Below are positions 27,668 to 31,065 of a DNA stretch of 64,000 bases, piece by piece. Each line of letters starts with the position of its first letter. Within the stretch, counting starts at the first letter, position 1. Position numbers and translations under genes: made by a program. The stretch is from the NCBI RefSeq assembly GCF_054482595.1, contig NZ_CM137008.1; one strand, given 5' to 3'. Under the pieces are notes generated by a model. It searched no databases. It was given only the letters and a program-made list of their open reading frames with translations, and was not told the DNA's origin.

Positions 27668-27848
27668 TCTCTGACGTTTTCCGGGTGGCGCTGGTCGCCC
27701 GGATTACAGCTCATAGGGTGTGACGACACCATCTCTCGTATTCCGCGTTACCCATTCAAGATCATGCCGCAATTGTCTGTTTGCCTCGTTCTTCCCTCCA
27801 ACACATCGATAAGGTTATGGGTATGTCACTGATGACAAGCGTATGATT

Positions 27849-27947
27849 GCCTGATGCGCTGCGCTTATCAGCCCTACCAATAAACTTCAATATATTGAAT
27901 TTGCATGACTTTGTAGGCCGGATAAGGCGTTCACGCCGCATCCGGCA
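27849..27947. repeat. REP/BIME pair
   Basis: GCCTGATGCGCTGCGCTTATCAGCCCTAC and TGTAGGCCGGATAAGGCGTTCACGCCGCATCCGGCA after fdhE. Confidence 0.8.
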
Positions 27948-27996
27948 TGAACAACGCGCACGTTGTCAGCAATCTGATTGACATCATTTTTTCCCA

Positions 27997-28215
27997 TTAC
28001 CATTCCTCGCGCAGCTTACGCTGATATTCGACACCATCTTCCTCACACCCTTGCCAGATGCCAGGAACACTGGTTCTTGCTGTTTGCGATTGATTTATCA
28101 GGTATTGATCTACCGCTTCCCTTAATAGGTCCGCACGAGGAAGATTACGCTGCACCTCGAGATCATCAAGTTGCTTAATCACCTCATTCGATAAATCGAG
28201 TAAAATTCTGCCCAT
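27997..28215 (-). CDS. yiiF: Small ribbon-helix-helix (CopG/Arc-like) protein
   Basis: 72 aa from [39 protein letters not shown]...; RHH signature; paralogous to yiiE. Confidence 0.8.
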
Positions 28216-28332
28216 ATCTATACCTACCAGAGAGTTCATAAATATCTCGCCAATATCATTTTTGAATCTATGGAGAGAAAAGTACCCTTGTCGAATCTTT
28301 AAAGAAAGCTCATTTACGAATCATTTTTTATT

Positions 28333-28352
28333 TTTGCGAGGCGTTTTCCAGA
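28333..28352 (-). promoter_or_regulatory. Copy 1 of conserved 20-bp motif TTTGCGAGG(C/T)G(T/C)TTTCCAGA, about 120-135 bp upstream of yiiF
   Basis: tttgcgaggcgttttccaga; extended similarity to copy 2 continues through ...GTTGCAGTT. Confidence 0.5.
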
Positions 28353-28458
28353 TATGATGTAACAGTTGCAGTTATTATAAGTTCAAGTAAAACAACCTTG
28401 TATTAATACCAGAATAAGGGCATCTGGTTTTTTATATTCAAGAATAAAAAAATTTTTG

Positions 28459-28677
28459 TCATTCCTTATGATCCTTACACTGATCATAAACACCTACTGT
28501 CTCACCCCTTTGCCTGCCTCTCTTTGCTTTACGCACCGGAAATTGCTGCCGCTCCAGATATTGCTCAACCGCTTCGCGTAAAATTGCAGATCGTGAAACC
28601 TTACGCCAGCCCCGAAGCTTGTTCAGCCGTTTAATTGCCTCTTCTGATAAATGAAGAAAAACCGTATTCATCGCCAT
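28459..28677 (-). CDS. yiiE: Small ribbon-helix-helix (CopG-like) protein
   Basis: 72 aa from MAMNTVFLHLSEEAIKRLNKLRGWRKVSRSAILREAVEQYL...; GGTGG RBS; shares L.LS.E.IK.L...R..LREAV.QYL with yiiF. Confidence 0.8.
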   Translation of the reverse strand: MAMNTVFLHLSEEAIKRLNKLRGWRKVSRSAILREAVEQYLERQQFPVRKAKRGRQRGETVGVYDQCKDHKE

Positions 28678-28772
28678 TACCACCACCTTACATATATTAC
28701 TCATTAATGTATGTGCGAAAATTACGCCGGAAAATCATTTAAAAAAAGCGGATTTTTGCATGTTGTTTTGTT

Positions 28773-28792
28773 TTTGCGAGGTGTTTTCCAGA
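28773..28792 (-). promoter_or_regulatory. Copy 2 of conserved 20-bp motif, about 100-115 bp upstream of yiiE
   Basis: tttgcgaggtgttttccaga followed by ...GTGTTGCAGTTG as in copy 1. Confidence 0.5.
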
Positions 28793-29084
28793 AATAATAA
28801 GAGTGTTGCAGTTGTTTCATTTATTACTCAAAAATGGTTTAGTTATCGCCCAGGATGAGTTATGGATGCTATGAATATATTATATTCAGAGATATTTATT
28901 TGCATAATCTGAATGGTGTAGCCGAAAAACGTCAGCATCCTAACAGCACCAGGATTTAAGGTGAAATTAATCATCCATCACAGACCGGTCAGTACTGCCA
29001 CCAACCGGTCTTTACTTGTTCATCGTTATAATTTTGTTGGTAACAGTTCGGGAAACAAGGAATTCCTTCCGGAACCCCCCGGTA

Positions 29085-29177
29085 TCATCCGATAGCATTG
29101 ACGTCAATCATCAGCGCGACGATGAGTTTTTTTAATCGCATCATAGGGTGGCGACGTTCAGCACGATTACGGGTCAT
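29085..29177 (-). CDS. Candidate 30-codon small ORF downstream of the antitoxin gene
   Basis: AGGAG 7 nt upstream of ATG; product MTRNRAERRHPMMRLKKLIVALMIDVNAIG (basic N-terminus, hydrophobic C-terminus); below the size cutoff of the ORF track; no homolog recognised. Confidence 0.3.
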   Translation of the reverse strand: MTRNRAERRHPMMRLKKLIVALMIDVNAIG

Positions 29178-29262
29178 AGCAAAACTCCTGGGCAGGCGAC
29201 CACTATGCCGCTTTCACAGGAGTTCTGAATGCTAGTGCTTTCTGTATGGCATAACCATGCCT

Positions 29263-29553
29263 CTAACGGTTAAGTGCTTGCAGCACATGTTGCGGATCAT
29301 TGGCAATCGCTCGCAGCAAAGCCTTTGCAGGCCCGGTCGGTGAACGTCGCCCCTGCTCCCAGTTACGCAACGTGTCTACGCTTACAGAAATAAGATCGGC
29401 AAATTTAGATTGTGACAACCCTGAAGCGCGGCGTATTTCTTTGATTTTCATAGCATCAACTTCAAAAGTCCGCGAAGGCTGTCGCGTTCCTTCAATAATT
29501 TCATTCATCTGGGCCATGCTGTGAGTCAACCGCTCAAAAAGTGCCTTATCCAT
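29263..29553 (-). CDS. HTH-XRE family DNA-binding protein, putative HigA-like antitoxin
   Basis: 96 aa; C-terminal HTH (IKEIRRASGLSQSKFADLISVSVDTLRNWEQGRR); GAGGTGG RBS inside the upstream toxin gene; ATG directly abuts the toxin stop (TGG-TAA-ATG). Confidence 0.7.
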   Translation of the reverse strand: MDKALFERLTHSMAQMNEIIEGTRQPSRTFEVDAMKIKEIRRASGLSQSKFADLISVSVDTLRNWEQGRRSPTGPAKALLRAIANDPQHVLQALNR

Positions 29554-29865
29554 TTACCACCTCGTATTTAACAACCGGAGCATTGCTTTTTCCTGGGGAG
29601 ACAGATCATCTTTAATACCCTTACGATAAATAAGCAGTAATCTGATCTCATAATGTTTAACCTGATGAAAGTAAATAACCCTGACACCAGCACGTTTCCC
29701 CTTTCCTCCTGAAACCCATCGAACCTTTCTTAACCCACCAGTTTCAGGTATTACCTCACCATAGTCAGGATTCAAGGCCAGGAAAAACTGAAAACGACTG
29801 AATTCATCGTCGGTCAGCAGTTTTTGAACATCTTCAGTAAAAATTTCCGTTTCGATGAAGAGCAT
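29554..29865 (-). CDS. RelE/ParE-superfamily toxin, HigB-like (toxin encoded upstream of its antitoxin)
   Basis: 103 aa; pattern ...GGLRKVRW...GKGKRAGVRVIYF.....IRLLLIYRKGIKDDLSPQE... typical of HigB-type addiction-module killer proteins; gene order toxin then HTH antitoxin with zero spacing. Confidence 0.65.
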   Translation of the reverse strand: MLFIETEIFTEDVQKLLTDDEFSRFQFFLALNPDYGEVIPETGGLRKVRWVSGGKGKRAGVRVIYFHQVKHYEIRLLLIYRKGIKDDLSPQEKAMLRLLNTRW

Positions 29866-29902
29866 AATTATACGCCATTGGCTTAGAGTAACAATCCTTT
29901 TT

Positions 29903-29919
29903 GTACGTCATTGACGTAC
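29903..29919. promoter_or_regulatory. Perfect 17-bp palindrome GTACGTCA-t-TGACGTAC upstream of the toxin gene: candidate operator
   Basis: Located about 40-55 bp upstream of the toxin ATG, adjacent to TTGTTA-N16-TATAAT-like hexamers on the minus strand. Confidence 0.4.
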
Positions 29920-29986
29920 CCTTGAAACCACTAGCTTACTGATAGTGCTCCAGCAAAACCACGTCTCTGCCGGGTTTGTCTTTAGA

Positions 29987-30006
29987 TTTGCGAGGCGCTT
30001 TCCAGA
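29987..30006 (-). promoter_or_regulatory. Copy 3 of conserved 20-bp motif, about 120-140 bp upstream of the toxin-antitoxin operon
   Basis: tttgcgaggcgctttccaga; 18-19/20 identity to copies 1 and 2. Confidence 0.5.
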
Positions 30007-30093
30007 TTTTTCACGCCCGTGAATTTCCCTGTATCCATCCAGCAAAAACGGGTGTATAAGACTGTGCATTCATACAGCAAAATAAGTTCTACT

Positions 30094-31002
30094 ATGGCAC
30101 TGGAAAAAGGAATTGCAGAGTTAGTCGAAAAGTTTATCGCTGCGGGTCGCCCCTCATCGCGTCAACAAAGTATTGCGCAGCGCAGGGAGGGCTATATCGC
30201 CAGCGCTGTCCTTGCGGGTGAGACAGAAACGCGGGTAGATATTCAGACTATCGAACTTGAAGGGATGACCTTACGAATAGTGTCGCCGCTGAATGCCCCG
30301 ACATTACTCCCGACGATAATTTATTACTACGGTGGCTGTTTTGTTAGCGGCGGGTTCGCAACTCACGACAACCAGCTGCGCCAGTTAGCCTATTACGGGC
30401 AATGTCGGGTTATTGCCGTCCAGTATCGGCTGGCACCGGAACATACTTTCCCCGCCGCCCATGATGATGCGCAACGAGGTGCAGAAATAGTCTGGCAACA
30501 CGCCGAACGACTCGGCGTTGATAAACAACGTATAACTCTTGCCGGTGACAGTGCGGGCGGACATCTGGCGCTGGTAACTGCTTTGCGATTAAAGCGTGCT
30601 GGCGAGTGGCAACCGGCACAACTCATCTTAATTTATCCTATGCTTGATGCGACTGCGCATTTCGAAAGCTACATACGCAATGGTCACGATTACATCATCA
30701 CACGCGACACTTTACTGAGCGGCTTTGAGATGTATCTGCCAGGCATTGAACGCAGGCATCCTGAAGCCAGCCCTCTTTGGCGCGATGATTTCAATGGCTT
30801 GCCACCTGTACATATCATTACCGCTGAATACGACCCACTTTGCGATGAAGGTGAAGCGTTGTATCACCGCATGACAGGGCAAGGAGTGCAATGCACCTGC
30901 CAACGCTACCTTGGCGTTATCCACGGATTTTTTCAGTTAGGTGGTATCAGCGAGGCCGCGCGATCGGCACTACGGGATGTTGCCTGGAGAGCGGGAAGGT
31001 AA
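30094..31002 (+). CDS. Alpha/beta-hydrolase esterase/lipase, hormone-sensitive-lipase family
   Basis: Oxyanion-hole motif YYYGGCFVSGG, nucleophile elbow GDSAGG, downstream Asp/His (VIHGFF); start uncertain (ATG 30094 chosen; ORF opens at GTG 30019). Confidence 0.75.
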   Translation: MALEKGIAELVEKFIAAGRPSSRQQSIAQRREGYIASAVLAGETETRVDIQTIELEGMTLRIVSPLNAPTLLPTIIYYYGGCFVSGGFATHDNQLRQLAYYGQCRVIAVQYRLAPEHTFPAAHDDAQRGAEIVWQHAERLGVDKQRITLAGDSAGGHLALVTALRLKRAGEWQPAQLILIYPMLDATAHFESYIRNGHDYIITRDTLLSGFEMYLPGIERRHPEASPLWRDDFNGLPPVHIITAEYDPLCDEGEALYHRMTGQGVQCTCQRYLGVIHGFFQLGGISEAARSALRDVAWRAGR

Positions 31003-31019
31003 CTTCGGACCTGGGCCCT

Positions 31020-31048
31020 GAAAAGGTTTTCAGATTGAAAACCTTTTC
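31020..31048. terminator. Hairpin between convergent esterase and yiiD genes
   Basis: Perfect 13-bp stem GAAAAGGTTTTCA-gat-TGAAAACCTTTTC; symmetric, could terminate both converging transcripts. Confidence 0.6.
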
Positions 31049-31065
31049 AGTCAAGTAAAACGCCC

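Follow-up and report, generated by a model that had tools for sequence, protein, structure and literature searches.

An esterase gene between two toxin-antitoxin slots at the fdhE-fabY locus of Escherichia coli: a probably ancestral arrangement reduced in strains mainly by deletion

We analysed the DNA between fdhE and fabY (yiiD) in a window of 64,000 nucleotides, the whole stretch taken from contig NZ_CM137008.1 of assembly GCF_054482595.1. The interval, 27668-31065, starts one base after the fdhE stop codon and ends one base before the fabY stop codon. It holds two genes for small ribbon-helix-helix (RHH) proteins, yiiF and yiiE, a toxin-antitoxin pair of the higBA2 type and a divergent esterase gene. 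An earlier note on this DNA had described it as a small accessory islet, with the toxin-antitoxin pair and the esterase as possible cargo. The comparisons reported here favour another reading, to which we give a probability of roughly 80%: the interval is an old locus of the Enterobacteriaceae, in which an esterase gene lies between toxin-antitoxin slots and in which strain differences arose mainly by deletion, and it is not an acquired islet. Gene identities assigned by homology, synteny, population counts and deletion junctions are the direct observations on which the account is built.

Genes and boundaries of the interval

Five genes and two boundary features define the interval.

27681..27702, plus strand: terminator hairpin of fdhE, found by reading the sequence; left boundary of the variable slot
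27997-28239, minus strand: yiiF, RHH protein of the VapB type
28459-28677, minus strand: yiiE, RHH protein
29263-29553, minus strand: antitoxin gene (higA2-type), 96 amino acids
29554-29865, minus strand: toxin gene (higB2-type), 103 amino acids
30094-31002, plus strand: divergent esterase gene, alpha/beta hydrolase, 302 amino acids
31018..31050, no strand: perfect inverted repeat (15 bp) in the gap where esterase and fabY genes converge

E. coli strain XH990 is 100% identical across the interval, and the gene calls agree with those that RefSeq gives for a strain of 100% identity. Homology and annotation bore out the toxin-antitoxin pair and the esterase as the earlier note had described them, and likewise its view of yiiE and yiiF as orphan RHH paralogues. 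The inverted repeat downstream of the esterase is likely to be a bidirectional terminator.

The esterase and its two slots are conserved across genera

FdhE was used to scan for the locus, which was recovered from 80 Enterobacteriaceae species. An esterase orthologue, 70-83% identical in amino acids, lies between fdhE and fabY in 56 of these loci; the genera that carry it include Citrobacter, Salmonella (diarizonae), Kluyvera, Klebsiella, Raoultella, Enterobacter, Lelliottia, Kosakonia and Phytobacter. Pairwise esterase distances tracked those of FdhE and FabY (Pearson 0.69; Mantel, 0/999 permutations), the esterase evolving about 3 times faster than these two flanking proteins. Within E. coli, synonymous divergence of the esterase, 0.045, was close to the 0.068 of fdhE, and the esterase showed a ratio of nonsynonymous to synonymous divergence (dN/dS) of 0.16, calculated on few alleles. 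Outside E. coli, too, the esterase has decayed independently: Trabulsiella, C. sedlakii, E. hormaechei and others are without it.

On either side of the esterase the content varies. Slot 1, from fdhE to the esterase, holds vapBC, higBA2, both or nothing, and in other genera the stop codon of vapC or higA2 directly abuts the same fdhE hairpin that bounds the slot in the window. Slot 2, from the esterase to fabY, holds a HigB/HigA pair of the K-12 type, ParD/ParE, other small genes or a bare gap, which measures roughly 40-95 bp in many other genera; pairs of the SehAB type (HigB/HigA) occupy it in several genera, and in the window strain it is empty. We propose that the core of the locus would be the esterase gene with its SOS-box promoter, placed between two short slots in which toxin-antitoxin modules come and go, homologous recombination between conserved flanking sequences probably being the means of exchange.

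Slot 1 of E. coli contains two relics of the region that separates a slot gene from the esterase, together with a recurrent 20-nt motif that is treated further below.

28277..28420, no strand: relic copy A of the intergenic region between slot gene and esterase, upstream of yiiF; it includes the motif (28333-28352) and a decayed LexA box (28397-28412)
28717..28816, no strand: relic copy B of the same region, upstream of yiiE, with the motif at 28773-28792
29987..30006, no strand: motif copy C, TTTGCGAGGCGCTTTCCAGA, where conserved sequence resumes to the right of the swapped toxin-antitoxin module

Copies A and B form a direct repeat of 100 nt, 71% identical, and the decayed box in copy A scores 2.2 bits on the LexA matrix described below. 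This arrangement suggests that slot 1 of E. coli may be a stack of three units, in each of which part of the original intergenic sequence would survive. Unit 1 would consist of a vapC remnant and the orphan antitoxin gene yiiF, unit 2 of the orphan RHH gene yiiE, and unit 3 of the intact higB2-higA2 pair that faces the esterase.

Distribution in E. coli and deletion junctions

Pieces of the interval were searched in 5426 complete E. coli genomes, a piece being counted as present when at least 80% of it was found.

Whole interval, 27668-31065: present in 2212/5426
Toxin-antitoxin pair and esterase, 29289-31065: present in 2599/5426 (48%)
yiiF, 27960-28331: present in 4722/5426 (87%)
Full two-gene module of the O157 type: present in 1062/5426
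474-bp scrap of the O157 two-gene module: present in 3056/5426

The interval is thus strain-variable, as the earlier note had supposed, and is not carried in identical form by all E. coli genomes; K-12, B and O157 lack the part with the toxin-antitoxin pair and the esterase. In K-12 MG1655 and B REL606 the match to the window ends at 29055 and is followed by a 474-bp segment and then by fabY. The note's statement that K-12 holds only yiiE and yiiF here was accurate save for one pseudogene scrap, which makes up the rest of the MG1655 interval. In O157 the match ends at 29288, and two uncharacterised genes (304 and 297 amino acids) follow. The 474-bp segment of K-12 corresponds to bases 1817-2291 of the 2291 bases of this O157 two-gene module, that is, to its fabY-proximal end. 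Strain 097H6 carries the toxin-antitoxin and esterase segment and the two-gene module together, and B2 strains such as F11 and NC101 are without yiiF.

The junctions point to how these forms arose. Where the arrangement is fullest, two direct repeats of about 105 bp flank higA2, higB2 and the esterase (L007 4338-4441 and 6154-6256); the window copy lies at 29183-29288, and the O157 junction fits recombination between the two repeats. In the O157 type, higBA2 and the esterase would therefore have been lost by such recombination. The K-12 deletion covers 4257 bp (L007 3816-8072), with its breakpoint in the window at 29055/29056 and without evident microhomology; in the K-12/B type the same genes and most of the neighbouring two-gene module would have gone in one larger illegitimate deletion. 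The B2 strains probably lost yiiF through short microhomology. Overall, deletion would account for most of the differences between strains.

The K-12 breakpoint falls in a stretch of slot 1 that is itself degraded.

28817..29262, no strand: decayed DNA with no intact open reading frame (ORF), holding the remains of two small hypothetical genes, both of which other strains have intact

Within it, at 29088-29177 on the minus strand, lies an ORF of 29 codons with a good Shine-Dalgarno sequence (MTRNRAERRHPMM...), which represents the truncated N-terminus of a hypothetical gene; 097H6 and K. spallanzanii have this gene intact, at 73 amino acids.

Other variants were seen at the locus. About 20% of E. 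coli have the O157 two-gene module, at L003 5701-7515 and hence outside the window, in slot 2. In strain LS4 the RHH genes are separated by two additional ones (L004 3042-4655), for a DUF6708 protein and a 246-aa hypothetical protein, and this gene pair represents a further cargo variant in some strains. Neither the slot 2 genes of O157 nor the extra genes of LS4 gave a match in Pfam, NCBIfam, PADLOC, PHROGs or PDB, and the label 'transposase' that the 304-aa protein of O157 bears in some genomes found no support. The 304-aa protein of O157 contains CKSAKDRT, a CX5R motif that we take to recall the phosphoinositide phosphatases SopB/IpgD.

An insertion sequence, IS621 (IS110 family), lies between fdhE and yiiF in several strains, for example C7 (L089 699-1679). 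It is a secondary insertion, located to the stretch between these two genes, which holds a repeat cluster; the place corresponds to about window 27850-27950. IS621 prefers repetitive extragenic palindromic (REP) sequences.

about 27845..27952, no strand: cluster of REP sequences and bacterial interspersed mosaic elements (REP/BIME), from multi-copy matches and sub-threshold Rfam matches

The part of the query with this cluster matched a median of 35 places per genome, and the Rfam scan of the interval gave sub-threshold matches only, to the REP-derived families naRNA4 and ES036.

Ancestral locus or acquired cargo

The earlier note implied that the toxin-antitoxin pair and the esterase had been added, by horizontal acquisition, to an interval that was originally like that of K-12. 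The patchy distribution, 48% of the genomes, is what such an acquisition would give, and the composition agrees with it too. GC content is 45.6% in the interval against 50.9% in the window and drops to 29% in intergenic parts; at third codon positions (GC3) it is 0.39-0.45 in the four small genes and 0.49 in the esterase, compared with 0.57-0.68 in the flanking genes. These figures confirm that the small genes are AT-rich. The HigB2 family is moreover common on plasmids, with 893 records; however, 882 of these 893 homologues are less than 60% identical, and the 100%-identical match in the plasmid set that we inspected sits on a 1-Mb record. No integrase or transposase gene was found in the interval, either in the ORF list or in an NCBIfam scan of the five genes, which upholds the note's remark that no classical mobile element is visible, and no target duplications flank the segment in the window interval. 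Among the traits of genomic islands and mobile elements, atypical composition is the only one present, and the locus that shows it is syntenic across genera.

What speaks against acquisition is that the esterase and a slot 1 module stand at the same position in most enterobacterial genera, that the esterase diverges together with its flanks, and that K-12 and O157 show deletion scars instead of clean empty sites. Synteny largely refutes acquisition, which we regard as quite improbable. Because of synteny, co-divergence and deletion scars, we conclude that the esterase and the adjacent toxin-antitoxin module are probably ancestral and that K-12, B and O157 are deleted forms, the reverse of cargo added to a K-12-like state.

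Several points weigh against this conclusion. The low GC3 of the small genes and the esterase would be expected of imported DNA too. E. fergusonii and E. albertii are absent from the 80 loci returned, E. whittamii is without the esterase, and one Escherichia species locus (L009) has neither the esterase nor the toxin-antitoxin pair. For the event at the 105-bp repeats, the sequences alone would allow insertion as well as deletion. Finally, the functional parts of the picture are predictions, namely toxin activity, antitoxin binding and the LexA control of the esterase.

YiiF and YiiE are probably stranded antitoxins

In other genera the orthologue of yiiF overlaps a PIN-domain vapC gene, and in about 35 loci a yiiF-like gene is always followed by such a vapC gene or a partial copy of it. 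E. coli retains a trace of this partner.

27704..27785, minus strand: decayed 3' remnant of vapC (PIN toxin), about 80 bp, from DNA alignment to Citrobacter vapC loci

Local DNA alignments of the remnant to the Citrobacter vapC loci scored 66-73, the maximum among shuffled sequences being 36. The remnant shows at the DNA level only, as a tblastn search for VapC in the window gave nothing significant; B2 strains keep a 19-codon C-terminus of VapC (E 1e-4). The dN/dS of yiiF within E. coli was 0.63, on few alleles. Judged by these comparisons, YiiF is a stranded VapB, a former member of a VapBC pair that now appears as an orphan under relaxed constraint.

For yiiE, dN/dS was 0.24, again on few alleles. 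True YiiE matches occurred only in the Escherichia loci L008 and L010, the others being cross-matches to the yiiF-like gene, and YiiE accordingly reads as a second orphan RHH paralogue, specific to Escherichia. The literature found on the two genes consists of list entries, plus a weak RpoS peak between yiiD and yiiE from systematic evolution of ligands by exponential enrichment (SELEX).

The esterase carries a conserved predicted SOS box

In NCBIfam the esterase scored 239 bits with LipP1 (cut-off 350) and 139 bits with Aes, all matches lying below the curated cut-offs. The residues GDSAGG (151-156), D247 and H277 are invariant in 52 esterase sequences. The histidine of the HGG motif is present in 51 of 51 other species, and tyrosine replaces it (H79Y) in all six E. 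coli alleles. On these features the protein probably belongs to a distinct subfamily of the hormone-sensitive-lipase-family alpha/beta hydrolases, and Tyr79 may be read as a sign of relaxation in the E. coli alleles.

30055..30079, plus strand: esterase promoter, with the -10 hexamer TATAAG (30055-30060) and the LexA/SOS box GACTGTGCATTCATACAGCA (30060-30079)

In the window and in 55 of the 56 esterase-bearing species, CTG-N10-CAG precedes the ATG by 31-36 nt. On a LexA matrix built from 22 known E. coli boxes, the window box scored 16.6 bits and was the top site of the 64-kb window; the known boxes span 13.2-27.1 bits, and the boxes of other genera reached 18-22 bits. The esterase promoter bears a CTGT-N8-ACAG palindrome that is conserved in orthologues and abuts the -10 hexamer. 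In other genera its core is CTGTATATCCATACAG, which we take to be one base off the core of the sulA box. Both the LexA box and the ribosome-binding site look weaker in E. coli than in other genera.

We suggest that LexA would repress the esterase and that the gene is a candidate member of the SOS response. SOS studies and datasets from K-12 could not have shown this, because K-12 is without the gene. The SOS box of the esterase promoter appears to be new: in the papers searched, STM4032, taken as this esterase, was found in a retracted paper only, and none of them links STM4032 to LexA.

The toxin-antitoxin pair is a HigB2/HigA2 homologue with a Salmonella counterpart

The 103-aa toxin matched V. 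cholerae HigB-2 in PDB over residues 2-99 (phmmer E 1.5e-19 to 1.5e-18). Its match to Pfam PF06296 was weak (E 0.006), and it had no match in NCBIfam. The 96-aa antitoxin matched HigA-2 in PDB (E 1.8e-8) and exceeded narrowly the cut-off of the NCBIfam model NadS (60.7 bits, cut-off 60); its helix-turn-helix (HTH) match covers residues 31-90, in the C-terminal part. UniRef already names the two Toxin HigB-2 and Antitoxin HigA-2. The genes are adjacent in the order toxin then antitoxin, 29554-29865 lying upstream of 29263-29553 on the minus strand, as in hig systems. By homology and gene order, the pair is classed as HigB2/HigA2. HigB2 would be a ribosome-dependent mRNase, neutralised and auto-repressed by HigA2.

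29874..29919, minus strand: putative higBA2 promoter and operators, with the palindromes GCCATTGGC (29874-29882) and GTACGTCATTGACGTAC (29903-29919) and a -10-like TCTAAG (29882-29887)

Hig-type loci of other genera and of Salmonella share both palindromes, which are likely HigA2 operators. A -10 hexamer, TCTAAG or TATAAG, upstream of the small palindrome is conserved as well. The best match of a sigma-70 scan, TTGTTA-16-TATAAT, was discarded as the higB2 promoter: its transcripts would begin within the ORF, and other genera lack the TATAAT.

In contigs of Salmonella enterica, a toxin of 68% identity lies between fdhE and fabY. In one S. enterica lineage the order is fabY, a truncated esterase pseudogene, the LexA box, the 20-nt motif, higB2-higA2 and fdhE. 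By analogy, we take STM4032 of S. Typhimurium to be the esterase and STM4034 to be fdhE. The pair in the window was also compared with SehAB of Salmonella and that identification was rejected, SehB having 142 amino acids and being of the K-12 HigA type; the counterpart is sehCD. SehC has been reported to be 72% identical to an E. coli HigB (PMC3868539). That paper has been retracted; the experimental data on SehCD come from it, and only its gene layout and names are used here. The toxin described here is distinct from SehA, a member of the other Hig family for which inhibition of RNase III was demonstrated in 2026 (PMC12817084).

A 20-nt motif at the edge of the exchanged modules

The motif TTTGCGAG-N4-TTTCCAGA occurs three times in the interval (28333-28352, 28773-28792 and 29987-30006), against 0.06 copies expected by chance. 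It is near-invariant across genera of the Enterobacteriaceae and stands about 50 nt upstream of the -10 hexamer of the esterase, at the right edge of the module-specific DNA. The finding appears to be new. When the motif was compared with the consensus sites of known regulators (marbox, Ada box, DnaA box, RcsB and others), no convincing match emerged.

One explanation would be that the motif has a function of its own, as the operator of some regulator or as a place for recombination or docking. It would then be retained at every junction of a toxin-antitoxin module with the SOS-box esterase, and as a dedicated cis element it would direct the exchange of modules or couple them to the esterase. 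In favour of this, conserved DNA begins with the motif at the right edge of the swapped module, it is retained where the esterase has been deleted, and every stacked unit of E. coli has a copy of its own. It is also intact in 44 of 47 loci with a slot 1 module as compared with 11 of 20 that have the esterase and an empty slot 1, counts in which the species are phylogenetically non-independent. Ordinary homologous replacement, however, would also put boundaries at conserved blocks; no recombinase gene lies near the motif, and the left side of the modules has no second site. The loss of yiiF or vapBC in B2 strains, E. whittamii and K. michiganensis does end at the motif, but at least one such breakpoint can be explained by microhomology between the 3' end of vapC and the motif. 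A dedicated site of either kind seems unlikely.

Read on the minus strand (CTGGAAA-N-CTCGCA), the motif might instead be a sigma-54 promoter of the slot 1 genes, as it has the GG-N10-GC spacing and conserved blocks one helical turn apart with a variable centre. On a sigma-54 matrix derived from 50 sites bound in chromatin immunoprecipitation (ChIP), the motif nevertheless reached only 3.1-5.2 bits, the bound sites scoring at least 7.9 with a median of 16.1, and more than 300 window positions attain at least 4 bits. K-12 has two perfect copies of the motif, yet sigma-54 ChIP sequencing (ChIP-seq) reported no site at yiiE or yiiF (PMC4591121). The matrix score and the published ChIP-seq led us to reject the sigma-54 promoter, which is extremely improbable. 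The published K-12 ChIP-seq also lists a site within fdoI (IS47, CTGGCGCGAATTCTGCA), 468 bp upstream of fdhE, which would fall at about window 26200.

Significance

The components of the locus are already annotated, and there is ample precedent for toxin-antitoxin hotspots, for orphan antitoxins and for loss in particular lineages. What the comparison probably corrects is a K-12-centred reading: the apparent accessory cargo would be the ancestral state, and the reference strain a deletion. The uncharacterised K-12 genes yiiF and yiiE gain a concrete candidate origin as orphan antitoxins, the toxin-antitoxin pair of E. coli is linked to a studied Salmonella locus, and a conserved esterase is nominated as an SOS-regulated gene. 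Should the 20-nt motif prove functional, fdhE-fabY would be a dedicated, family-wide exchange locus for toxin-antitoxin modules with a link to the DNA-damage response, instead of a hotspot that plays no active part.

Comparison with known systems

YiiF resembles the antitoxins of VapBC systems in its RHH N-terminus and its typical VapB C-terminal tail. Unlike them, it has in E. coli no adjacent PIN toxin, only the short vapC remnant, so that the pairing typical of VapBC is missing.

The esterase shares with the hormone-sensitive-lipase (family IV) esterases, such as Aes of E. coli, the GDSAG nucleophile motif and the catalytic Asp and His, and its orthologues share the HGG-type oxyanion motif, in which the E. 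coli alleles differ by having Tyr for His. It falls below the cut-offs of the curated families LipP1, Aes and chloramphenicol hydrolase. Its predicted LexA box is like those of the sulA type, a CTGT-N8-ACAG palindrome immediately after the -10 hexamer; it differs from the described E. coli LexA regulon in that K-12 has no esterase gene.

Like V. cholerae HigB2/HigA2 (PDB 5JA8, 5JAA), the pair consists of a RelE-fold toxin of about 100 amino acids and an antitoxin of about 100 amino acids with a C-terminal HTH, and both have palindromes in the promoter region. In contrast, the pair in the window lies in a conserved core locus and not in a superintegron cassette, its toxin is clearly diverged from HigB-2 (phmmer E about 1e-19), and the naming differs from V. 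cholerae HigA2, since the NCBI family model calls the antitoxin NadS.

A further parallel is the seh locus of S. Typhimurium, where two Hig-like modules, sehCD and sehAB, lie on opposite strands around STM4032 (PMC3868539). Slot 2 is empty in the window strain, unlike in that locus, but the layout sehCD/STM4032/sehAB otherwise matches slot 1, esterase and slot 2.

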